Positions 1-64,000 of a stretch of 64,000 nt of DNA are shown here, piece after piece (position 1 is the stretch's first letter; every line of letters starts with the position of its first letter). This DNA comes from Amoebophrya sp. A120 (taxonomy: Eukaryota > Protista > Dinoflagellata). A program made the translations under genes and the position numbers. Under the pieces are notes generated by a model. The model did not search any database. It worked only from the letters and a program-made list of their open reading frames with translations, and had not been told where the DNA came from. The DNA lies in contig CAJINV010000013.1 in the NCBI GenBank assembly GCA_905178155.1, positions 2,972,158-3,036,157 on the forward strand, given 5' to 3'.

Positions 1-206
1 GCGTGTCATGCACTCCTGGAAAATCTGTGTTGCATGAGCAGCAAAACAGAGGCTTTCTTTGTCATGCAAAAACGCAATTTGTAATGCGTGCTAGGCATCA
101 GCAGACCTCTCAAAAACTTGTCATGCTTGGCTGCCATTGGAAGCGCTTCAATCATGCGCAATTCAGCATCTCAAGTTTCCAGACCCAGACATTTTTACAT
201 TTGATA
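1..206. mobile_element. Introner/MITE family A, right part only (truncated by window start)
   Basis: Ends TTCCAGACCCAGACATTTTTACATTTGATA at 206; CLC coding sequence resumes immediately after; internal sequence similar to 2058-2319 (inverted) and 5024-5272. Confidence 0.85.
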
Positions 207-3200
207 GCGCGGTCGGGGTGTTAATTTCCAGCATTTTTGTCGGCGTCGTGGTGTCCATGCTGGTGCCGGAGTGCAGCGGGGGCGGCACGATTTCCGTCCG
301 CGCGTGTATCGCGCTCGGGTCTTTCGTACCCGCGCACGTCGGACTGGCAAGATTTGCGCTGTCGGCGGTCTACATTGGGTTTGGCAATCCGCTCGGCGCG
401 GAGGCGCCGACGCTGCACATCTGCGCCGCGGTCAGTTGCTCGCTGTACTGGCTCTGTCAACAGTACCAGAAGATATCCGTCTACTTCCCGGCGGAGAACA
501 GAACCACGATGGTGATGTGTGATTTTGGAGGATGTGTGTAGAAGTCGTGTTTGGGTCTTGACGATGCTCTGCCTCGTGGTGCAGTCGTGTTGTGTCACGC
601 ACAAAAGTTTCATCCTGTGCATATGTGTATGAGTAGAGGATTTGGTCGTGAGTCGATTGTTCGCCGGTCCGAAATCTAAATCTTCCTTGTCGACAGGTTA
701 TCGTCGGCTGCACCTGCGGCCTCGCCGCAGCCTTTTCCGCCCCCATCGGCTCGATCCTGTATGCGATGGAGGAATTTCGGCACTCGCTCGGGGACAGCAA
801 CATGTACACCACTCTGATCACCACCGCGTCGCTTGTTGCCGTGGTTACCACGCAGTTAGTGGTCACGGGGAAGTTTTACGAAACGTGCGAGGGCGGCACG
901 AACGTCGGCAGGGGGAAGTGGGAGGTGTGCACCTGGTTGGCAGTGGCGACCCCGTTAGGGATTGCGGCAGGGTACGTCCCCTTACTCTTCACGAACTGTG
1001 TCCTGTCCCTCCGGTCGAGGTTGCGGAAATACGGGGTGATAAGGCAGATGGTGATCTCCGCCTTGACAACCACCCTGCTCGGAACCTTCTGCTACGAGGT
1101 CAGCCGGGCACTTTTGGTGGAGAAAGAGTTGTGTCCGAAGCAAAACCTCTGTGTGGACGCCGCGAGCAGTGGTGCCACAGCGTCGGCTTCGAGGGCGCTA
1201 CTAGCTGAAGATGAGCAAATAAGTACAGTAGGTACAACTTCATCCACGACGGCCGGGGAACTAGGTGCGGGTTTCTCATCAGCATCTTCCTCAAGATCAT
1301 CGCTAAGCACAATAATAGTACCCGGAAATACAGATACAACTCCCGCGTCTGGCGGCCTGTCCGCATTCTTTTCGTCCACAATAGGAACGATGAGTTCCTC
1401 ATTTTCGTCCTCAACATTTGAGAGGAGGACGCAGCAGAGCATAATAGAAGACACCGCGAGGCAGAGAATCGGTGGGATAGCAGCAGCAGGTGGCGATGAT
1501 GCAAAAATATCAGCTTCGACGAATGTATTTCCTCCAGAAACATCAGCAGGAGCTGCTCCTGCTCCGAGGAGACAACTCGCGTCGTTTGTGCCGTCTTGCG
1601 GCTGGGATGGGGTATGGGGTGCGGGTGGCAGGACGATGGAAGAAATCTTGAAACCAAGGCCGAGGCTAGACAACGACAGGTCGCTGATAATGCCCTTGTT
1701 GATTTGCTGCATCATGTTCTTTGCCTGCAAATTTATTGCGTGCCTCACGGCGGTGGCTTGCGGAGGTATAATTTAATTTGTTCACATTTTGACGACCTTA
1801 TGAAAGCAGAAGCACAGTACTTCAGCGACAATTCTCTTATCATGTCGACGCGGGCGACAAGGCAACAGAGCTGGTGCAGTGCGAGAACACGACCACCGTA
1901 GATGTAAGATACATAAAAATCACAAATAAAGGTAGCGGTGGCGTCTTTGCCCCCGCCCTGGTTCTCGGCGCCGGACTTGGCGGCGCCTACGGTGGGCTCC
2001 TCTCGTACCTTTTCGACGACGCCTACTACCAGCTGCTTTTCGTACCGGTCGGGATGGTATGGATTGCAAAAATGTCTGGGTCTGGAAGATTCTGAGACTT
2101 GTCATGCATGTTTTGCATTGGCCATGATGTCCGTGATGCATGCCCTAGCATCACAGATTTTTTGAGGGCTTCGCGATGCCTATTCCGCATGACAAATGCC
2201 CTCTCCGCGTAGCAAAAATTGCGTTCCCTTTGCTGCTCATGCAATACAGATTTTTTTAGAATCCAAGTGCAGCATCACAGGTTGCCTTCTTCCAGACCCA
2301 GACATTTTTACATTTGGTAGATGGCTGCGGTGTTTTCCGCCATGATCCGACTCCCCCTCACGTCGGTGGTCATTGTGTTCGAGATGACCATATCAAAAGG
2401 AAAAATGCCCCCTCCCCATATCGGAAGCGAAATTTGTGATGCTGTATTTGAGTACACAAATCGACTTGTATTGCTAGAAGGCCAGGAGACGCAGCTGCGG
2501 CCTGAATTGCAGGCAATTTGTCATGCTGTTTCCCACTTCCAGCTGCCTCCTGTCATGCTGGAGATGCAAGGCTTTCCCAAAGCTTGCCAGCACTACAGTC
2601 CGCATCTTTTGCCTTCTAGCATCACAAAGCTGATTTGTGACCACAAATCTGCATCACAGATTTCTGTTTTGATATGGGGAGGGGGCATTTTTCATTGTAA
2701 TAGACCAGCGTCGCGGGGTCGCAGGACTCGTCGAAATATCCTGAGTAAAAACGCCCCCATACCACAGTCAAGATTGATGGGAAATCTGCTAGACAAATCG
2801 GCCAACTTTGGTTGATTCGCATGAAGACAAGCGTGGCCTCGTAGTGTAATCCTGTTCAGCTAGTTCAGCAGCATCACAGGCCCAGCATATCATGCTATTT
2901 CTAGCGTCACAAATCCCAAGACACGACTAGAAAAGACTTCTCATGGGGCTTCGCATGAGAAACTTTTTTGGCATGCAGATTTGCATGACAGCTTCGGGGG
3001 TGGGATGGCTTTACTCAGAATACGAAACTGGTTTTCCCCATGTTGCTCTGTTCGATGATTTCCTACTTCGTCAACTCCGAGGTCCAACCCTCGACCATGT
3101 GGGATCATATGCCTTGCACGCGTTTCGGACTAGGATGGATTTTTGCATCACAGCTTTCAATATAGAAGAAAAACGGAATTGATTCGTATTGGGGGGAAAA

Positions 3201-5310
3201 GGTAGGAATAGGAAAGCAGAATTCTCTGCTTTTTTGCATTGATTATGTACTGCTGTGCTGCAAGTGATTCATCTTTCTAGTTCGATACTTTCGAGTCTAA
3301 GGCATAGAGCAGCTGATGGAGCAGGATAACATCGACCCGAAGTCTCTTCAGCAGTTTCTGAACGCCGCTTTGGAGAACCCCATCATGAGCCGCAGGTCGA
3401 TCCGGGCGAGCATTTGCAGTGTGAGTGCTGCGAACAACGACAACTTTCTTGGAGGAGGTAACAATGGCAATTTCGCCACGACCAACATGAACAATGCAGC
3501 GAACATGGGTTCATCTGCTGTCTCGGGTAACAACGAAATTGGAAATCAATTTGGGGCAGCCGCGACGAGGGTAAGCATGAGCCGAGGCATGGGCGGGGGC
3601 TTCAATCTGGAACGGTTCTCAATGCGAGGTATACTTTTTCATGTTTGTTTTCGCAAGGTCGTGGAGTCGTGTATCCATGCCGTGAAATAAGCAGATCATT
3701 GGAACACCGGGACCAGAAAGTCATTCTTCTCCTCAAACCGATCACTATCACTAATCTATCAGCATCTCTCGCCGCACCGATGAAGCGCGAGAACTCGGCC
3801 TTGAGTAGTGCGAGTTCGATTCTCCCTCGGAACTTCAGCAGCGCGAATGAGGGCGATATGACGGGAGGAATGCATCAGGACATGGTTAGAGAGGCACTGA
3901 AAAGGATTATTGCGAATCAGGTACTGAATACTATCCCTTGATGTTCTTGAGGTCGACATTAAGTTTGTCCTTGTCTCACACCAGCATGACGAGCATGAAG
4001 TTTTGATGTGCTACAGCTTCATCTAGAAGTACAGTATTTCGTGCTGCAACATCAAGGCCCACTGCGCCAAAAATAATTAAACCTGCCTTCCCAGCCCGCA
4101 GCCGCCCGCGACCAGCAAACGCTGCGGATGACGACTGGCGCGACGCCGAACGTTGCGGGGCAGAAACGGATGTCCCTGTCCAAGCCAAACGGAAACTACC
4201 AGGTCAAACAGAGCCGGTCCCAGGGGCCCTCGCGGCGCGAGTCAGCCGTGGCGTTCGTGCAGCAGAGGCTGAGCATGTATCCTGAGTAAAAACGTACCCA
4301 CGACAGAGTCAGGATGGGGATTTTGCAACACAAACCTAGGAGTTTTGTGAGTCACGCGTGACAAGTTGCACTCTGCAGTGTAGTGCAGGTTAGCAAGTGC
4401 AGCCGCATCACAGATTCATCTGCTCATCCTGTTCACAGCATCACAAATTCCAAAACACTATTGGAAATGGCTCTCATGGGGATGCGCATTACAAGTCTTC
4501 CTGTCTTTGCAAATCTGCATTACAACTCTGGCGTGGGTACGTTTTTACTCAGGATAGCATGGCCTTCGGCGCAACGTCTTCGAGCAGCGGTGCGAATAAT
4601 GGCGACGTGTCGCCGACCCAACAAGTGGACGCGATTCTGCAAAACGCGGGGCTGGTGAAGCAGCACAGCGTCACGGGGGCGATGGTTCCTCCGGGTGTAT
4701 CCTTCCTGGGCGGGGGAGGTGGCCCGGACCACCAGCAACGGGTGAGCGCCAACGGCAATTTGCCCCCGGCCTCTCCCCGAGACACGCTCACCAACGGGCA
4801 CAGCCAAACGCACATCAACTTTGAGGCGTCCATATGCATTGCAAAAGTATCGTACTCGTATAAATGCATTACAAATTTCCTCAGCGTGAGAAATAAAATT
4901 TGTAATGCGGATTTGCCTTAACAAGATGACTTGTAATGCATGACTGCAATACGAGCGCGATACTTTTGCACAGGATAGTCCACGACGAGTGCGATGCCTA
5001 TGAAATCCGTGTCCCACGCGAGCTATCAAATGCAAAAATGTCTGGGTCTGGAAGAACAACTTGTGATGCGCATTTCAGAACACAGGAAAATCTCTAATGC
5101 ATAGGCAGCAAAAGTTACCCACTATCTGTCACCAAAGTGGGGGGTTTGTCATGCGGATTCGGCATTGCGGAAGCTTCTCGAAACCTGTGATGGGAGAGCT
5201 TCCATGCCAGACCTTCTGTGTCATGCAAAAACAGCATGAGTCTTCCAGACCCAGACACTTTTACAGTTGATACGAGCCGGGAGTCGCGGACTGGCTCGTT
5301 TCGGTCCTGA
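207..5310 (+). CDS. CLC-family chloride channel/antiporter, multi-exon, 5' end outside window
   Basis: Spliced translation gives CLC motifs PECSGGGTI, GNPLGAEAPT, GLAAAFSAPIGSILYAMEE, GGVFAPAL, GMAAVFSAMIRLPLTSVVIVFEMT, LVFPMLLCSMISYFV. GT-AG introns at 512-696, 1766-1931, 3629-3762, 3921-4094 plus 8 inverted-repeat insertions. Stop TGA at 5308-5310. Confidence 0.88.
2058..2319. mobile_element. Introner/MITE family A, TSD GATGG
   Basis: About 30-bp TIR TATGGATTGCAAAAATGTCTGGGTCTGGAA / TTCCAGACCCAGACATTTTTACATTTGGTA; GATGG at 2053-2057 and 2320-2324; removal restores VGMAAVF. Confidence 0.93.
2391..2702. mobile_element. Introner/MITE family C, TSD GACCA
   Basis: TIR core GAAAAATGCCCCCTCCCCATATC / GATATGGGGAGGGGGCATTTTTC; GACCA on both sides; internal sequence closely matches 63209-63524; removal restores FEMTSVAG. 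Confidence 0.93.
2737..3022. mobile_element. Introner/MITE family D, TSD CGAAA
   Basis: TATCCTGAGTAAA ... TTTACTCAGAATA; CGAAA at 2732-2736 and 3023-3027; removal restores SKLVFPMLL. Confidence 0.9.
3108..3306. mobile_element. Aged introner, 8-bp TIR, imperfect TSD GATCA/GAGCA
   Basis: TATGCCTT ... AAGGCATA; removal of element plus 5 nt joins MW(D/E)QLMEQDN in frame. Confidence 0.75.
4278..4556. mobile_element. Introner/MITE family D, TSD GCATG
   Basis: Perfect 25-bp TIR TATCCTGAGTAAAAACGTACCCACG; GCATG on both sides; frame LSMAFGAT restored. Confidence 0.93.
4833..4977. mobile_element. Introner/MITE family E, TSD GTCCA
   Basis: TIR core TGCAAAAGTATCG..CTCGTAT; GTCCA at 4828-4832 and 4978-4982; frame EASTTSAM restored. 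Confidence 0.9.
5024..5272. mobile_element. Introner/MITE family A, TSD CGAGC
   Basis: Family A TIRs; CGAGC at 5019-5023 and 5273-5277. Confidence 0.92.
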
Positions 5311-6776
5311 AAGAACCGGAAGTCATGGAGACCATGCGCGAGAGACAGACGTCGTGGTGGTTTCCAGGGGAGGATTTTGTGTTTTCGCAGTTTGGTGTTT
5401 GCTATTCCCACTCAATTTCTTCGAGATCAGATGAAAGAATCGGTATCTCGTACTCGTTCGACAACAGGTGAATACTTTTTCATTTCAACTTTCGACAGTA
5501 CAACAGGGAAGGTATTAGACGAACAAATCTAGTGACGACGAGCAAAGTAGTGTACGTTTCGACATACTTCTAGACGAACAACATATGTTACTGTCTCCAG
5601 TATCGCAGTAAAGATTTTTCGCAAAAGTAATTAATGGTCAGGACAAGAACAAAAATGAAAATCAAAATCATACAAAAGCAGATTCAAGCAGATTATGAAC
5701 GGAGTGCAAAACTCCGGGCAACAAGTATTTAGACGCTTCTTGGTATTATGCTTTTCTTTTCAAAACAAGGTAAAGGGTCTTCAAATTTTCGGGCTGATTC
5801 ATCTCAAATCTTCCTTTCACAGACTTTCCGCGTAGTTGCAATGCGCCCTGGCACGAATCAGTGGCGAAGTAGAAAAAGGATTTCGCTAGTAGAGCAGAAT
5901 CGACGATTTGGGCACGATTTAACAACAGATTGTAGATACCCTTGCGCCAGCAGATCTTTCCGTCTCGATCTCGAGACTGAAGTTTCAGTCGAAAGAAATA
6001 TGCTTCTCATGTGTCTATTCGTCCTCGCGATAGGCTACGCGATCATTGCTGGGTGTTCTGTTTACATTTGTGTGAGACGGAATCCGCGCCTTGTAGGTAC
6101 AGAGCAGTCGGTCTCGTCGTCCTTTCTCCACCGTGCAAAAAAACGATGCAGTTTGTGTGCAGAATCTGCCGTTAGGTGTCAGTGTGCACCTCGTGCCCTC
6201 CTACGTAAACATCGGTCTTGTTCGTTCGCAAAACACGTCTGTTGCTTCCAAAGCTGCCACTCTCGGTTTTCGTACATTGTGTGCTTGCGTCGTTTTTTTT
6301 TTTTCGTGCAATCAAGGAAGATAAATATCATCGTCCGTAGCCGTACGCGTACCGGCACAGTGAAAGCTAGGTTGTCGTGTCTGACTGCGCAAAGTGGCGA
6401 GAGCCCTCTATTTCAACAAACGTTTTTTTTTTCAAATGTCCTCCTATCTGCAGTGAAAAAGGTCATTGACAACTCAGCTTACCCAAGACACTTGCTACTT
6501 ATCAATCCACTGCTGTATGGCTGCTAGAAACTTCTACGCTTCAGAAAGGCGCTCCTCCCCGTTTATAACCCATGTCTGTCTACATTTCCCTAGCAGCAGG
6601 CTATCGCTATCCCCATAAGCAGAAAAAATCCATATGAAGATGCGGATTCTGGCGTGGAGCGGCGGGCGCCTCTGGGACGATATGAATTTTCTTCCTGCCT
6701 ACAAGTGATTAGCCGAATTGGAATTACAACTTAGCAGGTTCTTTTTCCACCACGCTGACCAGGCACCCCGGGCAAG

Positions 6777-9700
6777 ATGGGTTGCTGTTCGTCCGCCATG
6801 CTTGGGGGCAAGGACGCCCTCAGTCTGCCGAAACGAACCAACAGCATGTACATGTACGACGAAAACTACGAAAAGCGGGACCAGGGTTCGTACACGCCGG
6901 CCAATTTTGACCCGAACAAAGCCAACAATTTAACCAAGAAAAAGGACAAAATTCTCATCTCCTGCGAAAAGTCCGCGCTCGTGCACGTATAATTTGCGGG
7001 TTTTTTTGTTGAAAAAAAATCATCCGACCTCTAATCATGAGTTATTACATCGAAGTAATAGTTGTACAGCCATCCTAGCATTGCGTGGGAAGAAATGTGT
7101 GAAGATTTTTTGCAATGAAAATTTTTCTTCGCCCAGAAGTACAACGACACACGCGATCCGAGTGAGACTTTTAAAAACGTACCATTTCTACTACTGATTT
7201 TACAGGTCCTGAAAACCGGGGTACTGCTGGAAGAATACCTGATCCGGAACAACGTCCGCGGGAAGCAAATCATAATTTCCTGCGTCGACGTGTCCGCGAA
7301 AGAGCCGAAGGACAGCAAGTACTACGACTACCGATGGCGCTGCAGCTCCTTCCGGTTCTTCGTCGAATCAGACGTGATCGCCTACATTCCCGTCGTCACG
7401 GACCTATCAAATGCAAAAATGTCTGGGTCTGGAAGAATGCAACTGGTCATGCTAAATCTGAAGCATGCAAAAATCTGTGTTGCATGATTACCACAAGTCG
7501 CCCAGTTTTGACCAAGTCGGGGGGGGAGTTTCTCATGCAGGATAGGCATGAGAGAGATGGCACAGAATCTGTCATGCTAGGCCCTGCATTGCAGACCTCA
7601 TGGGTCATGGAAAAGCTGCATGACAAATCGCGCATGCTTCCAGACCCAGACATTTTTGCATTTGATAGGACCGCTGGCTGAGCAAAAAGGCGACCCACTT
7701 CGAGCTCGCCTGGATATCCGAGGCGAAGATGCTCTGGCAGGCGGCGCACCTCGGCCAGGACAGTCACGACGGGGAAGATTTCGGCGATTTCGGTTCCAAC
7801 CTGTTCCCGGTCGCGATTTTGTCCCTCGCGTTGGACATCCAGGACGACGAGACGAAGGGACTGCAAAAGAAGACGAAGAAAAACAACAATAATAATCACG
7901 ACAATTCGCAAACCATTTCGAACAAAAACACCAAGGCATCCGGCGGTCGCACGGTTGGGGACGATTTGGAGAGGCGGAAGATCCTCGAGCGGTCCTCGGG
8001 CTACAACCACAACCTGCTCGTGTTGTCCTCGATCACGCAAAAGTGGGTGCGGCAGGACAAATCGAAGAGACAGCTGGGCGTCGCCGGGTTGAACCAGTTC
8101 AAGGATCCGCGATTCGTCATTTCCGGGAAGTTCACGGTGAAGACCATCGATCCGTTAGGCCGGGCGGAGAAGCCGGCCGGGAAAAACTCCGAGGAGAACA
8201 AATCGAACGACCCGGACATGTTCGCGCGGGAATTGTCGCACCACCTGCTGTTCTCCGCGTTCAAACAGGTCAGGTTAGAAAAGGTCGCGGCCGACGGGGG
8301 CGAGTACGAGCGGCAGTCGATCAAGTACCGGGCGGAAGCGGTGCGGAACGCGCTCGGGAAAAACTGCTCCGTCGACGAGGCGCACAGCGAGCCGGAGGAG
8401 GTGCTCACGTCCGCGCGAAGCCGAGGGGTGGTGAACTTCGACCTCGGGGGGGCTGGGGAGGATGAGAATGGAGAGAAAATGAAGCCGGGGTCGTCGAAAA
8501 TGCCGAAAAGGTCTGGGTCGCCGAAAATCCCCAGCATAAAGAAGAACAACTCGCTGTCAAAAGTCGTCGGCGTCGGGATCAATACGCCGAACCACGCGGG
8601 AAAAGGGATTTGCTCCGCGTCCGTGATCGGCCCCCTGGACACGGTTTCGGAGCCGAGTCCCAGAACGGATAGGTCGGTCGTTGGGGAGTTGTCGAGCTCG
8701 AGGAATAAGACGGCTGGTGTAGGGGAGAATGGTGCAGGAGGAACATCAGGAAATATTTCTAATCAGGACAAGAACCTGTTGAACTTCGAAACGCACTCGA
8801 AAATCACAGAGGAGGAGACTGCGACAACGATCACGGAGGAGGTCGCCGTGCCGGCGAACATGCCCCATTTGTACTTGAATTTCGCGGAGGCGAAGAAGCG
8901 CGGGCCGGGGAACAACAGTCCGCGCCTCAGCAAATCGCAGATTCGGGCGAGCCGCGCGGGCTCGAAGGCGAAGAGCACGGCGAGCGGGGAGGGAATGAAT
9001 GCGCAGGAAAAGGAGCAAGAACAGTCGCTGTCTGGGACGGACGCGGTGCTGAAAAGGATGTCGGAACAGATGGAGAGGGAAAAGCAGGAAAATAACGCCG
9101 TCGTTGTTGGTACACCGCCAGACCAAACAGGCACAGTAGACGAGAAAACCAATCTTAAGCCAGAGGCAGAACAAGTAGATGATCCAGCGGACCTCCAGCC
9201 CGGCAATTCGCCCCGCGACCCGAGTAAAGAAGTTCCGTTGGAGCTCAACCTCGACACCCCAGCACAAACCTCCAACCCGGCGCACTCGACCACGACGGAA
9301 CTCCAACTGGCGAAGTCGCAAAACCGCCGCCCCACGCCGCTCCGCTCCCCGCTGGGGCAGTTCGCACCGGGGGATAGACTGGTGATCCACTCGCTGGAGT
9401 CGAACCCGGAGTACAACGGAAATTTCGTGAAAGTCCTCTCTGTTCAGTCCGCCGACATGATCGAAGTTGTGGTGCCGACGCAGGGCAATGAGCGGCTGTT
9501 CATCCCACCCGCGAACCTCGCTCCGTTACAGGACCCGAAGGCGATGTTCCCCGCCTTAACGCCCTCCGCGCACGGGTCGTTGAGCCCCGTGAGCCGGCAC
9601 GTGTCCAGCCCGACGATGCGGGGATTTGGGTCCGCGCTTGACAACAAACTGTTCGCCATGAACCCGGATAGTGAGGACGACGATGACGATTTCTTCCTGG

Positions 9701-12700
9701 AGGAGTCGGATTCGGATATAGACATTCCAGAGCAATTACTCACCGAGGCGATCAATCGGGATAGATTGTACGCGGAGCGATTCGACGAGAACGGGGAGGA
9801 GGTAAAGAAGGTTCCCGATGGAAATATAAATAAAGGGATGAACAACCAGCAAAATCATCTGGAAAAGACGATGGAGGATTTTCTCCCGCCTATCTACTGC
9901 CCCATAGACATCGAGAAGCTGGCACAGCAGCTGCCGACGAATTTCGGTACACCCGTGCATTTGGGACAGAGTAAGGGAAAGAAGAAGTCTCTCGGCTCGA
10001 CCTTGTTGGAAGAGGGAGAGGAAGATGATAATAATATCCAGGTCGTTGTAGCGCAGCCACCGGGCATGCCGGTGATTCCCAAGAAGAAACTACCCGAAAC
10101 AGTACTATCGCCGGAAGTGGAAAAGGAAAAAGAGGAGGAAAAGGTTCGAGAACAGAACGCAACAAGTAAATCCAAGTACAACACTTCCGTGGCGCCGACA
10201 GCAAATAACGAGGAAGACGACGACCCGGGAGTGTCGGATCTCGACCTTTCCAACACCGCCTTAGACCCCGGGCTGGCGGATATCGACACCGGGAACTTGA
10301 TGCGGGAGCACTACCTCCGGAAGGGTTTGGAGGCAGTGTACGGAGAGAATAACGTGCCGCGGGAGCTTATCGCAAGAAAAAAGTGTTACAGTTACACATT
10401 GTGTTGCAAGAGCGGCAACACAGACAACCTTTCTCATGCAGGAAATGCTTCGGAGCCTCGTTTCCTTCCTGTTTTCCCTTATGATCTTCGCATTACAAGT
10501 TTTCTCTGCCAGGCAGAGAAAATTTGTGATGCCGAAACTCCAACAAGTGTGTAACTGTAACACTTTTTTCTCATGATAGAGCTGATCCAGGCGAGTTTGA
10601 ATGACACGAGAATGCAGCGCGGGAAGTTCTCTGTCCCCGGAGGAGCGAAGACGAACATCGGGGGACACCAGACAGCTGCAGACAGCACCATCCGGTCCGC
10701 GTCCACCGTGAACGAAAATAATGCCGAATTGAAACAGACCGGGGCGTCGTTGCCGACGAACAGTAAGTCTATGAACACCGCTTCTGGGCAGCAAGTCGCG
10801 CCGGAGGACTTCGGGTTACCGAGTCTGGCGAAGATGCAGACCACGGAGCACGCGAAGCGGCCGGTGCCGTTTCCGTTGAACCTAGGGCAAGAGACCAAGC
10901 AGGAGACGAAGAAGATGGACATGAGCCAGGTGGTGGTTTTGTCGGACACGGTCGGGAACGGGCTAGTCGGCTTGCTCGGCGCGGTCAACGAGGAAAACGG
11001 GAATTTGCAGCCAAATTTGTCCTCAGCCACCTCTCCGGTGAACGAAGAAAACGAAAACTCCGATCCGGACATCGAAGACACGATTTTGAAGCCGCTGTCC
11101 ACCGAGGAAGTCGCGAAGAGGAAGGAACTCGCTTTGCAAACGAACAAAAACCTCTTCGCGCCCATTGGGGGTGGGAAGGTCGGAACTGGCAAAACTTCGC
11201 CGCCGCAGCCGCCCAGTCCGCCGGACGAAAGCAAAGGAGTACAGCAGGAGCAAGCAACTATGCCTGGGCCGAGACTCTCCTCCGGTCGCATGGACGAGAG
11301 CCGGTCTTCGTCGAAATCCGGGTCGCAGTCCTTCACGCCGCCCAAGGCCCCGGCCGGAATCAGACCGCCGTCGTTGGGCGCGCAACATGGAGCGACGTCT
11401 CGACCGGGCAGCGCGTCTATGGACGAGCAAACCTCTTTTTCCACGCAGCAACAGAGAACTTCTACAGGATCTTCCAAGCCGAGGTCCGTCCCCTTCGCGC
11501 TCGACATGCACAACGTGAACGACCCGCGCGCGCAGTTCCTGGAGACCATCGTGGGATTGGTCGTTCGGCCGCCGATCAAGGACATGGGGTCGGAGGACCA
11601 CCGGTTCCCGTCTTCCGTCATCGACGAGACCATCGAGGACAGCAGCAGCAAGAAGCGGCACTTCTACTCCGCCTTTATCGACGGCTCCATCACCCGGGAG
11701 ATCCCGAAGCAGTTCCGCGGCAAGAACTTCCAGTGGCACTTCTTGGCGGAGCTGCGGAACTCCTTTCTGAACAAAAACATCGTCGTAAGAGAGAACGAAA
11801 AAGACACGAAGCCGGACGAGCCGGACCGGGACAAGGAGGAAACGTTCGCGACGCAGAAAATTGTCGAGAATCTGCATGAATTACTGGAAAAGGACAACAC
11901 GAAGATGGTCTGCTACAGCACGGACATTTCCAAGCGGGAGAAGTACAAGGCGCTCGAGGAGGTGGAGAAGATTTGCCAAACGTACAAAACGCTGAAAAAC
12001 TCTTTGGCCAAGCACCGCGCGGACGAGCTGGCCGGGTACTTTGGCTACGACTGGCACCCGGATAACAAGGCGAATTTGTTACTCTACTCCGAGTACATCG
12101 ACGGGGGGACGGTCCATGACCGAATTCAGCTGAAAAGACTGGCGAACCGAAAGGAGATCATGCGGAACGAGCTCGCATTTTCGAAGTTGACCAGCGACCA
12201 GCAAGCCATGTACGGTTTGAGCGAGAAGGAAGCGCACTTTATCCTGATCCGGGTGCTGCGGGGCTTGGAGCAGCTGCACTACCTCGACATTTGCCACGGT
12301 GCGCTGCGGGCGTCCAACGTCGGAATCAATCGGCGGAGTGGCCGCGTGCAGCTGTTGGACTGGGGGATGTTTGATCTGCGGAAGTACTGCAACGACGAGG
12401 GGAAAACCTGGAAGGCGAAAAATTGTCGGTGGATCGCGCCGGAGTGCCTGCCTGATTTCGGGCCGGGAAGGGGAAGCAACTTCTCGAAGGGAAGCGACAT
12501 CTGGAGCTTGGGATGCTTGGTAAAAATGATTTTTAAATTTCCTGTTTGTTTCAGTTTTGGTCATACTACGTGGCATGAAAAACATCACTCAGATCTATCG
12601 CCATGCTGCGTGTAATAGCATCAAGACATAAAGATTTTGTGCTACACTTGTTCCACGCATTTTTTTTTTACCAACAAGAAACTCACACAAACAGCTCCTT

Positions 12701-19935: not shown

Positions 19936-20174
19936 GTAGGGCGCGGAGGGCGACGAGCTTGGAATGGGATTGTGGACAATTACTTCTTTAGACTTTTTTT
20001 GTTCTTGTTGAGTTTGCATATTACGGATCCTAGTGATGCGGATAGATTGAAAAGTACAGCAAGGTCGACTTTGTTGACCTTAGGGCTGTTTCAGATGATC
20101 CACCAGTTCGACTGTTAGTTCGACTTCTTTTGACGTTTCCTTGTAAAATTCTCCACTTTGTGATATGAACGTGC

Positions 20175-50829: not shown

Positions 50830-51390
50830 ATGCTTCGTCGTTCCCTGCCGTCCCTCGGTCCTCCGAAAGCGCCGCGCAACTGCTTCTTCCCCTGGTTCAA
50901 TTTTGTGCTGGTTCGTTCCGGCGCCTACCTCGAACCGAACCGGATAGCGTTTCGGGTGCCGGTGCACATCACGAAGCCCGAAATTCGCGAGTACTTGCGG
51001 AAGATTTACAACATGAAAGTGATCAAAGTGAACACGTACATACACATCCCGAAGATCAAGCGCAACGCGTTCGGCGACTACATTAAGCAGGGCGGGATCT
51101 ACAAAAAGGCGATCGTGAACTGCGAAGAGGTGATCCCCGACGAGGTAAAGATGTTTGCCAACAGCCGCAAGCCGCGAATGAACCCCGCGATAACGAAATA
51201 TGACACGCCGAAGCACATCGCGCGGAAAAAATGGTGGTCGAAAAACACGGTGCGACCGGGGGTGAACAGGAGTAGCGACTGGCTCCCGAGGCATCCCCAG
51301 GCATACGCGGAGGTCATACCGACGTTGCTCCGCGGCGACGATTTTCCGCCGCCGCTGGAAACCAGCGAGAAGCTGGAGCCGCAGAGGTAA
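50830..51390 (+). CDS. MRPL23: Ribosomal protein uL23, likely mitochondrial
   Basis: FRVPVHITKPEIREYLRKIYNMKVIKVNT and YKKAIV are uL23 signatures; intronless. Confidence 0.88.
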   Translation: MLRRSLPSLGPPKAPRNCFFPWFNFVLVRSGAYLEPNRIAFRVPVHITKPEIREYLRKIYNMKVIKVNTYIHIPKIKRNAFGDYIKQGGIYKKAIVNCEEVIPDEVKMFANSRKPRMNPAITKYDTPKHIARKKWWSKNTVRPGVNRSSDWLPRHPQAYAEVIPTLLRGDDFPPPLETSEKLEPQR

Positions 51391-52094
51391 AATCATTTTG
51401 TTTCTTGCTACTGCACCAAAATGGACTTCTGGTGGAAATGCGGTAGTGATTCATGTGTTATGACTATGAGTTTTGAAAAAGATGATTGCGATTCGCAATG
51501 TCGATGCAACACAGGCACCTCCCCCACCTTCACCAAGGCGGTCCTACCCTCCCCGACAACGTTCCGTTCCAGGAATTCCCGCGTCCGGACCTGACGGTCT
51601 TACGCGGCCGGCACGAGGCTGCCAGACCCCGGACGGGGGCACAGATGCTCGACGGGCTCCGAACGCCCGCAGAATTGAGAATAAACGAGCAAACGCACGT
51701 TCTACCGCATGCAGAAAACCCGTTTGGCAAGAGGATAGGCTGAAGGAGGTTGGTTCTACATGTAGAAGTAATTTATCATGTAATGAACTTAGAGCAAAAA
51801 GAACTCAAACGAAGGCCAGCTGATTCCATGCCTGTGCTAAGGGCATTGATCCTAGGAGGTGTTCTACTTGCAAAGCCAAAGCCGAATCGGCTTCCCGGAG
51901 GTGGAAGATAGACACCACTCTCATCGTCACCAAGGCATCCAACTGCGGTTCACTGAGACGCGCGGAACAAGTGCAAATTACGTAGTCTGTCGGTACGGAC
52001 TCTCTCTCGACTTCTATAGAGCTAAAGGAATAGGAACCAACAGCACTCTGATTCCACGAATCATTGACCACGACGTGAGCTTCATTGTTCCAAG

Positions 52095-54195
<2,101 letters not shown>

Positions 54196-55077
54196 ACAAC
54201 GTTTAGACGTACGGCAGCGCCGTTTGGTCGGCCTTTTTGGTTTGCAAGTTTGAAGGAAACTACTTGTGCGGCAGCGTTGGTTTCAATCACGCAGCGCCGT
54301 AGTACGCACTGCAACTATCGGCACTGATGCGGGTTTCTTTGATGCAAAATTTGCGTTTGGCTTTGGAGTTGCGTCGTGTTGCATGAGGAATTTGTAGCAA
54401 TACTGGAAAGAATTTTGCAAATTTTGCACAGAAGTTGCGGATAGCGTTTGTCGATTCATACGTGGCCGAGGACCTTGTGAAGCAGTGCAGCCAGCAGGTG
54501 TTGTGTCGGGAAGATGTCATCTGTGCGATGCTGATCAAAGAAGTTCTTGTCATGCCTCGCAGAAACACAGCTTGAGCGAGTTTTTTCGTTTTTGACTTTT
54601 GCGGTTTTGTATGAGCTGTTGATGTCGCATGTTTGAAAGTATTAAGGAACACTGCTTTTCTCCTGAAATTCGACCGCATTTGCGATGGACCAAAATTTTC
54701 CAAAGTAGCAAGACCGAAATATGAAAATGTTGTAGATACGATGCGATGTTGGCGATCACCAGCAGTCGCAGCAGGCTTAAGCCGCCTGCTGCAAGAAGAC
54801 AGATCAGCACACGGCAGTTCTATTTTACCTCAGGAGGGGAGGAAGAGCAAGACCCTAGCTGTGAGTTTAGCTGTGGGCGACAGCCGTTGAGAGGTCAGTA
54901 GACGTACCGATGATCGAGCATGACGGAAAACAGGAGGTTAAGTCTGTGCTGCGCTGAGGCGGAGGGGACAGACACGCGGGAGCTTAAGTCGCGGCAGAAA
55001 ATGACCTTCTTGAGAACTACGCAGTAGAGCTGCACGACCCGCCGAGTCGTGAGTAAGAATAAGAGTCGATATCCAAG

Positions 55078-58000
55078 ATGCTGGCGCCAGCCGTCGTTCT
55101 CTTTGTTTCGTGTGTTTCCGTGCAGGTTTGTTCTGCACCACCAGGCACGAAAGCTCGCGCATGCGCATCTCAGTCTAGCACCGAGGATGTTGAAGAGATC
55201 GATGCGGGAGAAAAATCGAACGGCCCACAATCACCAGCTTCGCAGCTCCAACTGCCCGCAGCTGCAGGGACCACAGCGCCCCCTAAAGAAGCAGAGGCTC
55301 TTCATGAAGAGGATTTTCAGCCCGCTGAAGAGTCTTCTTGGGCCTGGCTTTGGCCTCCGCGTTGGAATTTGTTCTCCGGATGGAGCCAGAAAAGCAGTTG
55401 TGGGCAACAAGCGAAGACTTCTTTCGATGAAGCATTTGTCCAACAATCTTCTGCGGCGACTTCGGATAGCGCAAGAACTCCGACATCACTGGGGCAAGAG
55501 CAGGATACCGTGGTTTGTAGTTCAATCCTACAACAACTCTCCCCGGCGGCCAGTGGCAGTACACGAGGTGTCGTGTCCTTCACTACGAGTCCGCGCGGCA
55601 CCGGCTCTCCAACGTGCCAGGACTTTGTCAGCAGCTCAACGGCAGCTGCGATTCTTGGTGTGAATCAGAACAGTCCCTATCCGGCTTGCGTTCGTGTGGT
55701 GAGCAAATTCTTGAACATTAAGAACTCAGAGCCGACCTCGCGTGTGAAGCAGCAGGCGTTGACTGCAGCGCTTAACTCCAAACGTTTAGAGTCTGGATCT
55801 GGCTCTGCACGGTCGCACACAGCAGACGAGGCAGTACTATCTGCTGGGAGACGAGCAGCAAGCCAGCACCAGCAGCCGTGTCTCAGCCAAGCGGAGCGGA
55901 TCTGTCGAGAGCTGAAGAAAGACGTCAATGTTGGTAAGGAAATGCAGCTGGTGGCACATCAAGAATGCACAAGAACCAGAGCAGATGACGACTCTCCTCC
56001 CTCAGTCCCAGCTTCGCCGCAAGCCACTCAAGCAGCAGATTCTGTAGCCTGCCAAGAGAACTACGCGGATCGCAACGAAAAAGAGCAGAAGCACGAAAGA
56101 GCCGGGTCGTCGTGGAAGATGCGCGACGTTTTCAATAGAAACTTCCGCCTGGTTTCCTTCGCAAACGCGCTGGGTGGCCGAAAACAAGCCACAACTTTTC
56201 CGCTAACCACGACAGCGTTGCCGACGTCCCGCTTGCAGGTGGGTAGGAACAGAGCAGCAGCACTGCCTGTTCCAAAAGACCAGCTCCACGCGACTTTGAA
56301 CCGGTTTGGCTGGGGCCACTTGGCGGAGGATCTGAAGTTCCTAAGCGACCAAGATCTCTACATGCTGCGGACGTTGGCGTACACTGGGAATGGTCGTAAG
56401 CGGACCAGGTCCAGCACTGCATCCTCGAGTACGAAGGAAAACCAAAAAGCAGGAACAAAGGAGGACGATCTTCTACCGGAAGAAGATGCATATGGCATCG
56501 AAGCTCTAAACCAATTCCAATCGGCGTCTTCCTCGTCTTCGAAGCAAAAGAGCCGCGAGCTTCAGGAGTTCAAATTCAAGGCTTTGAAACAGAAACTAGC
56601 CGGCAGCACGACTTCTGCTGCCGACGAGGGAACATCTACTACACTGACAGGTGCTAGTACAACAACTTTGCCGGCCAGGGATTCCTTCATATTGAGAAAC
56701 ATCCTCATGGCGGATTACTTTTTCGGCGGCTACAACGCGAATCAATTCAATTTTGACCAAAAACAATCCGTCGCGAGGGATTTGCGGACCAGTTTGTTTG
56801 AGGCGGGTGTGTTTTCGGACTCGCAAGTCGGGGATTTGGTGCAAACGCTGAAACGCAGGGCAGAAAATTACAAAACCGATTCCACTTCAAATTCTTGTGA
56901 CGCGGGTGCGTTTCCAGCAAGTGCGTCGTCGGCCCAAGAGCTTCTTTTGCAGACGAAGGAAAACTACTGCGGTGGCTCTGGCTCGTCTTGCTGCGTCGAC
57001 AAGGATCTGCGGGCCGGGTCGGTGCTCCGACTGGCGCCTTGCGAGCCCGACGGAGATGATCAGGAAGACCATCATGGAGGAGCAGGCACCGACGAATTGA
57101 AAGCCAGCAAGCAAACGAGTGCCGGGTCGTCTGTCGGAGGACAAGAGCTGCTTCATCTACCTGACAAGAATAACAAACTGACTTCTCGGAAATCACTCGG
57201 CTCTGACAGATCAAAATCCACCACGCTATCGACCTCTGCACCGAAATTGACAAACGCGGTCTCCCGGGTGTTCCAGTCCATGCAGAAGAATTTGAAGCAG
57301 CAACTGAAAAACAGTCGGAGCAACTTGAGTCTTATGCAAGAAAAAAACTGTGTAAGTGTAACTCTGTGATGCAGAAAGGGCAAAACAGTTACACTTGTCA
57401 TGCTGGACATGCATCAGAAGCTTTTTTCGTGCGTGTTTTCACGTATTAGCCGCGCATGACAGGCTCTCTCTGTCAGGCAGAGCAAATTTGTGATGCTATT
57501 CCTCCAAGAAAGTTACACTAACACAGTTTTTTTCTTGGATAAGTCTGTTCAGCGGCCTGACCTCGTCCAGTCGGAGGATATCAAGCGCAAAAATGTCTGG
57601 GTCTGGAAAAATGTAAACTTGTCATGCAGATTTTCCATGACCACCCATATGGTCTGGAATGCGGGACCTAGGATGGCAGACTCTGTGAGGTCTCTACCAT
57701 GCCCATCCTGCATGACAAACTCCCTCCCAACTTGGTCAAAAGTGGACAGCTTTTGGCACTCATGCAGCACAGATTTTTGCATGCTTCAGATTTACCATGC
57801 ACAGATTTTTGCATGCTTCAATTCAATTCAGATTTACCATGACAAGTTGCCACCTTCCAGACCCAGACATACTTGCAATCCATAGAGGAAGCGAAAGTGC
57901 AAGAAAGATAACTTGGAGAACGACCCGGAGTTTTTTCCCAGGAAGTTTCTGCCCAAGTTCGTCTTTCTCACCGACGTCGACGACACGTTCTGGTGCAGTA

Positions 58001-61000
58001 ACAAGGAGGCGAGCGGTATCGCCGGCACGGACGAGAGCATGTCACCGGTGGCGGCGTTTGTACAACCGAGTGGCGGGGGTAGTGGAGACTACCAGGGGGG
58101 ATCATCTTCGCGACGGAATTCTAACGGAAGCGGCACTGGTACTGGTTCTTGTGAGCAAAATAAGCCCGCAAAGAAGCACGAAACGTACCCCGGTGTTGGG
58201 TTGCTCATGGCGTTCCTGAATGTGCAGAGCAGTATTTTGGGGGAGGGAGAAGATAGTTCCTCTGGGCGAAAGGAGAAGTTTTTCTACGTAGGGAGAACGA
58301 AAGTGGTTGTGCCTGCAGGAGGACAGGAGCTACTGTTTCCGCATGAAGATAAGAAAGCAGGGAAAAGAACATCAAGAATCAGTGCCGGAAGTAGAAGTGC
58401 GCTCACCGTCCCATCAGCACCTCCGCCGAGATTCCTACTAAAGCTGGACACCGAAGAGTACAAGTTGGAGAACAGCCTACCTTTCTACCCGGGCCTCCTT
58501 ACCGCCCGCCCGGGAGAACTGATGGGAACCATTAAGCTGCAGGCAGGGTCGAAATTTGGCTTTAACAAGATTTGCGACCGAGACCTCCCACCCGCGAACA
58601 GCTTTTTTGATCCGGGTCTTCTTGGTGAGACAGCAGTGGGTGCTGGCTCCCTAGTTTCTGCCGACCCTCCGGGAGATCAACCGCAAATCCCGGCGGCGCA
58701 CCAGCTGCCGTCCCTCCCATCGTCCCCGAAGAAACCGATCACGATTCTGCCCGGCGCCACCACAGTCCGACAGCTGCTTGGGAACGCGAAGGCACTGTAC
58801 AGCTACGCAAACGACAATGCGGTGACCAAGCCGGATATCAACCGGGTGTCTTCCATCGGGGAGCGGAAAGTTGAAACTTTAGAGCAGTACTTGCAGATCT
58901 TTCCCGAGTTTGTCAACCGCGTGGTGTTTATCGGGGACGACGGCCAGGCCGACATGGCCGTCGCAAAGGCCATGCTGGACAAGGCCCGCGTGGTGGCGAT
59001 CAAGCGGGTGTGGCAGAAAATTTTGGTAGGGAAAAGAAATAGCGGCGCTGCTTCCACGACGGCCGCCGGGACGAGGAGAAAGACCTTCGGGAAGACGCTC
59101 ACGCTGCCCGAAGGGGCAGTGAAAGCTGCTGTCGGCAAAACTGGGAGCGCGGGCAGCAGTACCAACAGTGACATGAACAGCAAAACTCCAGCTAACAACG
59201 ACTTCTATGCAGGAGCTGCTGCTGCAGGTGCAGCTTCTGGCGGTGGAACAACTGCTGTCGCGAACCGGTTTTCATCCTCTAACGGTGCGTCAGCAACACC
59301 AGGAGGAACTACCACCAGGAGAAACACGGCTGAGAAAAATTCGTTTCAGGAGTTGCCGAGTAAGTTCTTCGGGCGGTATTTCGAACAAGAGCCGCATTCG
59401 GTAGCAATGGAAATGAACAGAAACACCTTGCGCGCGGAGGCAGCGCGGGATGGCGCCACCATCCTTCGTGAAGAAGAAGGTCTAGCAGAAGGAGAATCGT
59501 CCGACGAGAAAAGTCGCGACTTGGTAAAGAAATCGCATCAGAAAGTGAAATTTTTCTACTTCGACCACTATGCTCCTGTGCATGAGTCGGACCCGGCGAG
59601 AGAGCGGTACGACGCCGACCTGGAGTTACCTGTGTGGGATACCGCGAACCCCTTTTCAGAGATAATCGAGTTTGCCGACGGGGCGTTCTACTTGATGGAG
59701 CAAACAACTACTGATGATGAAGGTAGTACTCCTGCCGACGATCGAGATGATAACTACACTGACGAGGAAATGTTACGAAGTACCAGCGCGCCGCGGCTGA
59801 GAAACAAGTCAATGACCAGAGTGTCTAACAGACTGCCAACGTTGATTGCTCAACTGCTGATCGCCGGTGTCATACCGGAAACGGGACGAGACAGGTACGT
59901 GCGCTTGGACGACTACTTTTGCGGGCCCACTGGTGCCAGTGGACGGTCAGCGTCCACGTCTGGGGCGCAACTTTTGCTTGGCAAAATGAACAGCTACTGC
60001 ACCGCCCTATTTCACTCAGCGGCAAGGGATAAAAACGACGAGGACGAGGACCACAATGAGCAAAGTGGTAGACCGGGAAGCAGTACCGATGGAGGTCGTG
60101 GTGAATCAAGTAGTGCGTCTGCTTTTTTCCCCCCAACTCCTCCCCCTGAAATTCGGTATTGGGACCTGGTTGCGCCCAATGTACGACCAGGGCGGGACGA
60201 AAATAAAGGAGAGGAACTCCGTTTTCGGTACACAGTGAAAGAGATCGAAGTTGGAGCGCGCTGGGTCGTGCTGCACCCCGCGGTGCCTTTGGGGTTTACT
60301 ACTGATCCAGTAGCTTCAGATGAGCGACAACCACAGCAGCCAGCTGCAGTTCTTGAGAACAGAAAGCAGGACGAAAAGAAAGATACTCAGATCATAATTC
60401 CACAAGAACATCACCAAGCACCACAGCCACGATTCTCCTTCACTGGCGGCGATGTTTCCCACAAAACCGATGAATTTGTCACGGCTCTTCAAGGTGACGA
60501 GGGACAACGCGACAGTATACGCGCCATCACTTCTGCTGAAGACGAAGACCACGAGCACGACCGGAGTACAGATTCTATCACGCCGCGAACGCAAGAGCGG
60601 CTGGACGCTGCGGTCGCAGAATCGATGTTTCTCACCGCGAAAAGCAGCAGAGCTGGAGGAGATGCGAGAAATGCGTTCAGGAACGTCGAGAGAGGTCCAA
60701 GTAGAGACGAGGAAGTCGAACTGACAACGAAAAGACTGCGGAAAAGCGGGGAACATGAACGAGAGCCGGAGTTACTTTTGGAGACAATTATGCCCCCTTC
60801 AAGTAACGACCTTGCAGCTCCGCTAGCCGGAAAAAGCGACCAGCAGCAGAATCAACAGCTTCTGCTTCCAGCTGTGATTCCACGAAGCCGTTTAGGAAAT
60901 AGACCACGAACAGACGGAGGCCTGGTGGCGGGAATAATTAACGACGCATCGGCGACGGCATCACCGCAGAGCTTTTCCCTGTTCTCGCCACTTCCGCCCA

Positions 61001-61101
61001 CCGTGCCGAACCCCCGGGGGACTCTACGAAGACAAAAACTGCAACAGAAACGCAGCATGTGGCGCGAAGCAATTGAAAGGGAAAAATCGAGGAAGGCATA
61101 G
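55078..61101 (+). CDS. Protein of about 1,830 aa with APP1-like (DxDxT, HAD-fold) phosphatase domain
   Basis: ORFs 55078 and 57913 fuse through a micro-exon (57547-57578) between two introners; motifs FLTDVDDTF, YPGV, LLTARP, FPEF..RVVFIGDDGQAD. Confidence 0.72.
57333..57541. mobile_element. Introner/MITE family B variant, TSD AGTCT
   Basis: TAT.CAAGAAAAAAACTGTGT.AGTGTAACT TIR; AGTCT on both sides; frame NLSLFSG. Confidence 0.93.
57579..57884. mobile_element. Introner/MITE family A, TSD GAGGA
   Basis: Family A TIRs; GAGGA on both sides; internal tandem duplication near 57768-57841; reverse-complement homologue of 7405-7667. Confidence 0.93.
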
Positions 61102-61943
61102 ATTTTGGCACTTTCTTTGGAAAATGAACAGGATGCATCGAGAAAATGTCCAACGTCGGTAGTATGCTAGCGATTGCCTAATGAGGCTTGTATGATGTAG
61201 ATTTTGATGATTAATAAATAGTTCTTCAAACGAATACTAGGATACTGGTCATGCCCGCCTCATGACAGTGAAAATGAGTAAATTTAAAGCAGTGCTTTTT
61301 ACTAGCGCCAGCCTCCAGGACCGACTAACTTTGATGTCTGTGAAACCGCTCACTCAGCTGAAAGTCAGGGTGAAGAAGCTGGATCAGCACAGTATTTTTC
61401 TGACGTTTGCGAAGTGTAAATTTTGATAGCTGCTTCGAAGCTTCTACCGATAAGTCAGATTTTTGACAGGGTATGATGTTGTCTACTTCTTTGACTGAGA
61501 AGATGTCGTGTGCAGCTACCGATTTTTGAAGCAGTATCGGATGCTGTTCGTGCACTCGCCTATTTGAAGATAGGCTTTGAATGAACAGAAAGCGCGCATA
61601 AAGTAGATGGCATCTTCGCAGAGAGAAAGTAGCTGTGTTGATGTCGTGATGTCGTATTCTGGAATAATGTCTGTCAATGTGGCCGGTATGAGGATCAACA
61701 GCTCGAAAGATTTGGCTCGAGGGAAGGCTACGGTTTTGTGACATCGTAGCTTTTCTTGGCGGCGCCAGTTTGTCCCTCGATGCGTTTGCCCAGTGGCTGA
61801 AATTTGACGACATGTGTACGACTAGGAGATAGATGCATAACATGTGCATGTTACGGGAGAAAGCGAAAGGAAAGACAAAGATTTGCAACAAAGCATTTAT
61901 CGCCTGTTATAAATCGTTCTTGACCAAGGAATCTAGACGCAAA

Positions 61944-64000
61944 ATGACGGACAAACAGCACGGGTGCCCTCTTCCCGCCGCCGCGGAAGAACTTAACAAC
62001 ACGGCTTCCACCGACACCAGACCTCTGGGCCGCTGGTTCCGACTAGTGCCGAGCTACCCGATGTGGAGCACATCAAACAACGTCGCCGGAGGAACAAGAA
62101 GTGGGTTATTTACCCAGGTCCCGCCAAGAAGTAGTAGATCTTCATATCGTCGCTCTTTTGTCTACAACGAGGACATCAGCAGCAAACAGCACCGTCGAAA
62201 AAACTCGAGCAGTTCCAGCTCCTCCGGCCACAGTCCCAGCAAACACCACGACCAAGAATTCATCCATGTGATGCGCACGGCGCGCGAGCTGCCGACCGCG
62301 AGCGAGATTTTCGAAGCCCTAGACGCCAACGAGGACGGCACGGTGTCGGCAAAGGAGCTGGACAAAGCGCTGCGAAAAATGGGAAAGTCGGAACGCGTGC
62401 GGGAAATCTTGCTGCAGCGAGTCTTCAGCTACCAGGGGGCGAAAGTCTCTGAGAGTGGTGGGACGAGAAATAGAGATGAATCTAGCGGTGGTATGACTTC
62501 TGGTGCAGCTGCTGGTGGTTCTACCTCTCCATCTTCTGCAACAGCAACAACCTCACCGCGCCGCTGGAGCAACAGAAAGAGGTTTCCGGACGAGCAAGCG
62601 GCGGATCATCAAGGTGATTCTGAGCCCGACCCGCCACCACTCTCTAGAAGGTTACAGAGCATCGTGAACGGTGCGGGCCCTTCTGCCGCGAGAGGACAGC
62701 AACACACGCATAATAAAACCTCAGGACAAGTACATCAAAGCGCCAATCTGGACAAGGACCACCGGAAGACCACCCCGTTGCCGCCGTCAAACGTGACGTT
62801 TGCGGAGTTCGAGCGGTACTATGAATCGAGGAAAGCGGAACTAGAGCGGGTGTACCACATGCTGACCCACCAGAACAAGAATGATTTGAATTACCCGAGC
62901 AACGCGAAGTCCACTTTGGATACGAACAAAATGCGAAAATTGCTGCAACTGGTCGGGAAAAAAGTTTCCGACGAGGAGATCCGGCTGATTTTGCACATCG
63001 CGGAAACGGAGAACAACGGAGTTTTGACCTTCACGGAGTTTGCGCATTGCTGCTTCTTTGCGCCAGACGTGAACCCCGCGGCGGTCTTCGACAACTTCGA
63101 AAAGGACACGTTTTACGAGGCGGACGACAGCGCCAGTTCGGTGCCGAGTAGGCTGGATTACGGTCTGAACAAGGTGACGAAAACGGAGACAGGGGAAGTG
63201 CTTGACAATATCGTGAGGAAAAATCCCCCCCTCCCCATATCGGAAAGGAAATTTGTGATGCTGCATTTGCGTACACAAATTAATCAGTTTGTATTGGTAG
63301 AAGGTCAACAGACGCAGTTGCGGCCTTAACTGCAAGCAATTTTTCATGCTGTTCCCCATTTCGAGTTGCCTCCTGTCATGCTGAAGATGCAAGGCTTTCC
63401 CACACCGCCCAGCACTACAGTCCACTTCTTTTGCCTTCTAGCATGACAACATGACATGTAGTCGCAAATCATGCTACACAAATCCCCTCTTTGATATGGG
63501 GAGGGGGGATTTTTCATTTGGATAGACAATCAGAGCTACGACGAAGTGGTGCGGAAGCTGCTCTGCGGCATGGTGGCGGGAGCGACCTCGCGGACCGTGA
63601 CCGCGCCGATCGAGCGCGCGAAACTGATCATGCAAGCCACGCCGATGAGCACGACGGGCGCGCGGTCGACGTTTTTGGATACGTTCACGCGCATTTACCG
63701 ACACGGGACGCTGTACGACTACTTCCGCGGGAACGGGGCGAATTGCGTGAAGATCGCGCCGGAAACGGCGCTGAAATTTCTGTTGTTCGAGAACCTGAAG
63801 AAGCGGATCGCCCAGGAAACGGAAAACCCGACCACCGTCGAGCGGTTCTTCGCGGGCGGGCTGGCCGGGGCATTAGCCGGCGCGGCGATTTACCCACTGG
63901 AGATTTCCAAAACAAGATTGACCCTCGCGCCGCCGAAAAAGTACAATGGGGTGCTGCATTGTTTGCAGAAGGTGCTCTACCAGGAGGGGATTAAGAACGG
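61944..64000 (+). CDS. Calcium-binding mitochondrial carrier (SCaMC / ATP-Mg/Pi type), runs off window
   Basis: EF-hand DANEDGTVSAKE; after introner removal AGATSRTVTAPIERAK, RGNGANCVKIAPETALKF, IYPLEISKTRL. Confidence 0.9.
63209..63524. mobile_element. Introner/MITE family C, TSD GACAA
   Basis: Family C TIRs; GACAA on both sides; near-copy of 2391-2702; frame VLDNQSYD. Confidence 0.93.

Follow-up and report, generated by a model that had tools for sequence, protein, structure and literature searches.

Genes and elements in the window

The window considered here is a 64,000-nt stretch of the genome of the dinoflagellate Amoebophrya sp. A120 (contig CAJINV010000013.1, positions 2,972,158 to 3,036,157 of the forward strand), whose genes are interrupted by short TA...TA elements with inverted-repeat ends. 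Pfam matches, obtained with six of nine queries, identify a CLC channel, a protein kinase, Vps51 and a protein combining EF-hand and mitochondrial carrier domains among the hosts, and NDH2 was identified through homologs. The hosts named in a first-pass annotation of the bare sequence (CLC, VPS51, EF-hand/mitochondrial carrier and NDH2) are thereby confirmed. That annotation had described the elements as exonic transposons removed as non-GT-AG introns and had given them a common design: a 5-bp direct repeat, TA, a terminal inverted repeat, TA and the same 5-bp repeat. This design is borne out by a scan that required paired TA...TA ends, perfect 5-bp repeats on the flanks and at least 17 complementary positions out of 30 at the ends: it returned 15 complete elements of 145-330 bp in the window and none in any of 20 shuffled windows. 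At least six end types are visible, in line with the six or more families claimed. Four imperfect elements raise the total to 19, where more than 20 insertions had been announced, and the perfect repeats number 15 rather than 17.

Within the CLC gene lie an element of the TCTGG end type cut by the window start (1-205; its right end and internal boxes, described below, match the element catalogue, and its repeat cannot be checked) and two exonic elements at 2058-2319 (repeat GATGG) and 2391-2702 (GACCA). Next come 2737-3022 (CGAAA), a decayed copy at 3108-3306 (decayed ends; repeats GATCA and GAGCA, alike at four of five positions), 4278-4556 (GCATG), 4833-4977 (GTCCA) and 5024-5272 (CGAGC). 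The element at 7405-7667 (GGACC), with ends complementary at 30 of 30 positions, lies in a long open reading frame leading to the kinase domain, and 10368-10578 (GAGCT) interrupts the same gene. Further along are 23079-23330 (AACGT), in a coding-like frame, and 29915-30135 (CCGCT), whose junction frame is open. Two imperfect copies follow: 36221-36573, at the end of a long open reading frame (CTCTT/CACTT, four of five; one end no longer TA), and a decayed remnant near the VPS51 start, 42864-43018, with an uncertain left end. An exon of VPS51 carries 44235-44564 (ACGAG), and an exon of NDH2 carries 48613-48926 (ACGCT). The remaining elements are 57333-57541 (AGTCT), 57579-57884 (GAGGA), oriented opposite to its relative at 7405, and 63209-63524 (GACAA), which Pfam places between the EF-hand and carrier domains. 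At 30657-31465, 42734-42977 and 54548, element boxes cluster but no paired ends can be recognised; these are probably decayed copies.

Excising each intact element with one repeat copy, neighbouring elements also being removed, leaves the junction frame open at all 15 sites, as the annotation had it. In NDH2, this loss of length + 5 nt restores a motif of the A120 protein model that is shared with the A25 ortholog; the block across the site is ungapped in 52 of 53 homologs, and a 3-nt footprint would insert one extra residue. GT..AG stands directly at the element ends in only two of the 15 intact elements (2058 and 4278), again as claimed, although for most elements an in-frame GT/GC..AG pair can be found no more than 15 nt away. 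Of 19 canonical introns with approximate limits, only one, a GT-AG intron of NDH2 (47689-47840), contains element boxes; it has two and may derive from an old element that became canonical.

Loss of elements from assembled transcripts

Removal was assessed by aligning four contig sets from one sample (X1 to X4, whose RNA nature is a guess) to positions 200-10800. Thirteen joints are listed in this interval. Four are GT-AG introns, six are elements, and three (2316>7643, 4856>4928 and 4878>4931, with sides of 20-26) were set aside as probably stemming from other copies. The element joints are 2385>2703 and 2731>3023 (both in X1 and X3), 3105>3310 (X3 only), and 4271>4556, 4827>4978 and 5018>5273 (in all four runs). 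They skip 317, 291, 204, 284, 150 and 254 nt, respectively, in each case the length of the element plus 5 nt. Thus, six sites show a net loss of element + 5 nt: five of the eight intact elements of the interval and the decayed element at 3108. The three elements lacking bridging contigs (2058, 7405 and 10368) are evidence neither for nor against removal. Elsewhere in the window, pieces of RNA-like contigs start exactly at 44565 and at 57885, immediately past the elements at 44235 and 57579.

None of the six bridged elements has GT-AG, GC-AG or AT-AC in any allowed register. At 4278, use of the GT-AG at the element edges would skip 281 nt; all four runs skip 284 nt, so this GT-AG is bypassed. 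Removal of length + 2 nt, leaving a 3-nt footprint in the GT-AG register, accounts for none of the six joints. Retention of the inserts and junctions at cryptic GT-AG sites, two of the outcomes that the first-pass annotation had named as contrary to its proposal, were both looked at: the contigs lack all six bridged elements by length + 5 nt, and no element joint lies at such a site. At 3108, the two repeat copies differ at position 3 and the base of the left copy is retained in the one run that has the joint, which places the cut in the left copy after position 3, 4 or 5. This element has lost its A-run and kept the predicted terminal pairing, and its removal is still seen. The annotation had also held that removal reads the hairpin and the direct repeat instead of splice dinucleotides. 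The non-GT-AG part of this claim is supported. Reading of the repeat is not shown: the element at 3108 is removed normally with a four-of-five repeat, and in 8 of 122 elements in coding context, from the collection described below, the repeat copies agree at three positions or fewer.

All six element joints are carried by contigs from which GT-AG introns are likewise missing; one such contig (X3 record 13), judged by its pieces and length, combines three element joints with two GT-AG joints. The RNA-like runs have no cover over 6218-7279 and 7988-9403, which argues against much DNA in them. Two raw-read runs, X9 and X11, gave no mapping to the window exons. In X11, an RNA run from a different sample with the same species label, 360 reads lie partly on 57338-57463 and none on exons, pointing to a related element piece in an abundant transcript.

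Duplication, end signals and target sites

Further copies were fetched with one end pattern, which yielded 150 loci totalling 406 kb, biased to one family (124 of the 198 target sites used below). An exon in these loci is 100% identical to an A120 protein, indicating that they come from the same or a near-identical genome and ruling them out as an independent lineage. A scan blind to the repeat returned 256 end pairs, including 14 in the window and 3 internal false pairs. In the 5-bp register, 213 are perfect, 25 match at four of five positions and 18 at three or fewer; at other lengths, perfect repeats occur once at 4 bp, once at 8 bp and never at 6 or 7 bp. Two loci depart from the rule: L066:3319-3598 and L035:5151-5478, one with an 8-bp repeat and one with a 5-bp repeat displaced by 3 nt, both offsets preserving the frame class.

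A gene strand could be assigned with confidence to 155 of the 238 elements with at least four of five repeat matches, and 132 lie in a coding-like frame; retaining the element would stop or shift the frame in 129 of these. A classifier using the flanks only calls coding sequence at 122 of 155 element sites, compared to 409 of 833 random sites. Perfect repeats are more frequent in coding context (106 of 122) than elsewhere (22 of 33; P 0.01), a gap expected in part because one copy is under coding constraint. At L030:3295-3550, a mismatch at position 1 of the right repeat creates GT..AG in a length + 5 register; keeping the left base gives a glycine present in 19 of 19 homologs, as judged from the published gene model and conservation rather than from reads. 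This locus is a candidate step from a non-canonical to a canonical intron.

The families share the end motif TAT-N4-TG-Y-A-run. In addition, all 238 elements carry a box with the profile AAAYYTGT(C/G/A)ATGC. Box spacing is mostly 31, 32 or 33 bp (120, 51 and 37 times), with 39 bp found 41 times. A loose version of the box pattern occurs 67 times in the 4.4 kb of window elements and 34 times in the 59 kb outside them.

Target preferences were derived from 198 clean empty sites (396 half-sites; no redundant flanks). At 13 bp from the duplication, T is found in 51% of half-sites against a background of 22% (P 9e-37), and at 11 bp G is found in 48% against 28% (P 5e-17). This T-N-G motif is present at 120 of the 198 sites and is predominantly one-sided: 55 sites have it on the left only, 59 on the right only, 6 on both sides and 78 on neither. 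Shifting the offset by 1-8 bp lowers the count to 7-29. The motif is independent of element orientation (T at -13 in 26 versus 24 of 48) and of transcription (40 upstream, 32 downstream), and is thus likely to be a DNA target signal. By family, T and G are both seen in two and T only in two, while two small families (28 and 14 sites) give no significant result; the window taken by itself has the motif at 6 of 15 sites. Repeat starts are unevenly spread over the three codon positions (24/45/63). A hand-made product of T and G frequencies predicts about 25/46/61 and so fits in direction; with the motif at only about 60% of sites, so close a match owes something to luck.

With terminal inverted repeats, a duplication of fixed length and no coding capacity, these copies have the properties of miniature inverted-repeat transposable elements and are likely non-autonomous DNA transposons. 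A search of the 150 loci and the window, covering 204 distinct ends, found no autonomous partner with a transposase. Five candidates stand out by length (457-1031 bp); none has a frame over 151 codons, and one of them results from cross-pairing of neighbours. Two long copies, L073:4014-4985 (972 bp) and L048:3305-3935 (631 bp), have matching ends, perfect 5-bp repeats and no frame longer than 86 codons. The end pattern has no match in viral contigs.

Several lines of evidence identify the window elements as the introners already described in A120. Over the ADSL and NDH2 exons of the window, identity to proteins that bear the label Amoebophrya sp. A120 is 100%. According to Farhat et al. (2021; PMC7789003), the introners of A120 have ends of TAT + 7 nt + A-run, direct repeats of 3-5 nt and variable splice sites and amount to 29,850 copies; the authors report RNA-seq support for non-canonical introns, and their legends mention 5-bp repeats (Fig. 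S19) and place the inverted repeats 1-5 nt away from the splice sites as called (Fig. S23). Here, the end profile of the 238 elements shows TAT, seven variable nucleotides and at least three A (the A-run was partly a selection criterion in the 256-pair scan, not in the window scan), the direct repeat is perfect at 5 bp in the 213 pairs noted above, and removal from transcripts is non-canonical at the six joints. The families recur across the genome, with at least 151 matching stretches and element bins far deeper than their flanks in run X5. Gozashti et al. (2025; PMC12130899) count 58 introner families in A120; among 22 A120 rows of their data, most are 'TIR DNA, Unknown' of 100-350 bp, about half with non-canonical sites. 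Their automated duplication calls range from 2 to 5 bp, and their family 38 has Copia/Gypsy-like open reading frames inside inverted repeats. The protein identity, together with the matching ends and repeats, means that the system is already known. The annotation's statement that such a class had been reported in Amoebophrya is therefore correct and can be strengthened, the organism and the elements themselves being the same.

The present data add useful refinements to this known system. Where Farhat et al. give repeats of 3-5 nt and variable splice sites, the duplication seen here is strictly 5 bp, and the published variation is consistent with sliding of the called sites inside it. The published text on A120 introners, figures aside, yielded no mention of the strict 5-bp length, of insertion in both orientations, of the shared boxes spaced 31-33 bp, of the one-sided, offset T-N-G motif or of the bypassed GT-AG.

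Comparison with other systems, as far as the cited parts of the literature go, sets the elements apart. Euglenid nonconventional introns (PMC12501133, PMC11282704) resemble them in lacking GT-AG and in having terminal pairing, repeat-like junctions and an unknown machinery; however, they carry a CAG/CTG code (CAG at +4 to +6, CTG near the 3' end), reach thousands of nucleotides and have been shown to form circles, whereas the elements have TAT...ATA ends with a TAT(C/G).. profile and no CAG consensus. IS3EU/GingerRoot transposons (PMC10045372) share TA..TA termini with inverted repeats but make 6-bp duplications, seen in 0 of 256 pairs here, which rules out membership. The spliceosomal introners of Micromonas and Aureococcus are likewise inverted-repeat elements with duplications that become introns, those of Aureococcus using canonical splice motifs that the A120 elements do not use. 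U2 or U12 intron ends (GT/GC-AG, AT-AC) are absent from the six bridged elements.

Three further features lie in the window. Between genes, 20125-21560 holds a 1.36-kb imperfect palindrome with nested arms 72-86% complementary and an exact 39-bp direct repeat on either side. Its open frame of 306 codons (20623-21540) has no Pfam match, and the palindrome is possibly a fold-back element or an assembly feature. The GC-rich stretch 16600-18066 contains inverted repeats rich in CG, as well as a 42-bp tandem array that extends into an assembly gap. A short coding tandem repeat occupies about 31990-32190, at a gene end.

A model for insertion and removal

We envisage that a DDE transposase encoded elsewhere in the genome would bind the end motif and the spaced boxes, choose its target partly by the one-sided T-N-G at 13-11 bp, and insert the element in either orientation with a 5-bp stagger. 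Removal, which very probably acts at the RNA level, would begin with the two ends folding together; pairing is predicted for the inner ends of 128 and for positions 1-3 of 111 of the 132 elements. The cut would then be set by distance from the TAT...ATA ends, the repeat merely making the join seamless. Such a ruler, in place of repeat matching, is suggested by the element at 3108 and by the eight coding-context elements with poorly matching repeats. The putative chemistry is that of a protein endonuclease and a ligase, not of two spliceosomal steps, and would be lariat-free as suspected for Euglena. That a non-GT-AG, cut-and-ligate pathway reads the paired ends and forms no lariat is, in our judgement, an even call. 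We advance only tentatively the fuller version: a second, non-spliceosomal RNA-removal pathway that would measure five bases in total from the paired TAT...ATA ends, equal to the transposase stagger, and so undo insertions made either way, with an unclassified TA..TA, 5-bp transposase as the mobiliser, whose one-sided motif lies about one helical turn from the cut.

The strongest competitor is a relaxed U2 spliceosome, possibly lacking U1, for which the hairpin would join the ends and replace dinucleotide recognition. We consider it a serious possibility that falls well short of even. It was proposed by Farhat et al. on the basis of 83 of 89 spliceosomal proteins, with no U1 (and no transposase) found in A120, and a review reports that the spliceosome of Fritillaria has adapted to non-canonical ends (PMC11282704). 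Canonical and element introns occur on the same transcripts, and the mismatch at L030 makes GT..AG in a length + 5 register. Against it, the GT..AG at the edges of 4278 is ignored. Elements also lie in both orientations: relative to transcription, 60 have the orientation of their nearest relative and 57 the opposite one (117 of 132 could be classed, 15 lacking a close relative). Over the 132 elements, neither GT nor AG is enriched in any one register; GT..AG in any length + 5 register is found in 9, which is chance (6.1 expected), and 51 have no 3' AG in any register. A G at repeat position 1, supplying a required 3' AG, was rejected (47 versus 39.0 expected). So was the box as an obligatory branch site: the sense strand of the element at 5024 has none, yet this element is removed, and the box appears in only 1 of the 19 canonical introns.

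Some observations weigh against a separate end-reading pathway. Two mild excesses, uncorrected for seven tests, favour some spliceosomal role: AG at the 3' end of some register (81 versus 64.4, P 0.002) and G..G at the edges (21 versus 12.4, P 0.01). Stem mismatches are equally often G-U (123) and A-C (131), so that no selection for RNA pairing is seen. The test is weak, as a mismatch that is inherited changes type with orientation. Complementarity at stem positions 4-7 is limited to 37-79%. The RNA evidence consists of contigs from one sample of one study, a format in which minor forms are lost. Neither an excised circle nor a lariat nor an enzyme was observed. Finally, a hairpin with a short repeat is a known recipe for skipping by reverse transcriptase (PMC4176328).

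Excision at the DNA level in the transcribing life stage, akin to that of ciliate internal eliminated sequences and needing no RNA step, appears improbable. A symmetric, orientation-blind signal with end boxes would suit a DNA-binding protein, and loss of the element with one repeat is what precise excision produces. Moreover, the source DNA may represent one life stage only, and an empty form could be hidden since DNA-like joints are listed only above single-copy depth. However, contigs of the DNA-like run continue unbroken from flank into element at single-copy depth (42-48; five elements in 44000-63990), the elements are present in two assemblies, and the RNA-like runs hold contigs linking element ends to long flanks of other loci. 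Weaker still, and very improbable, is that the joints are template switches of reverse transcriptase over the hairpin at the short repeat, with real mRNA retaining the inserts: the same structure gives false introns in human data (PMC4176328) and all RNA evidence, here and in the Methods of Farhat et al., is short-read RNA-seq, but the frame would be broken by nearly all coding elements while host motifs are intact (as in the ungapped NDH2 block), tens of thousands of copies are reported genome-wide (PMC7789003), assembly follows the joined form at as many as three successive elements, and 3108 is skipped despite its mismatched repeat.

The literature cited here does not settle how A120 removes its non-GT-AG introns, which number in the tens of thousands. 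The present results narrow the process to testable rules: loss of the element plus 5 nt, in both orientations, with no need for particular dinucleotides and with precedence over a GT-AG where one is available. The true cut position has natural reporters in the elements whose repeats are mismatched, and the offset target motif together with the spaced boxes is a fingerprint for tracing the missing transposase. Should removal proceed without the spliceosome, A120 would join Euglena as a second eukaryotic case, with an RNA excision activity that is seamless and blind to sequence.

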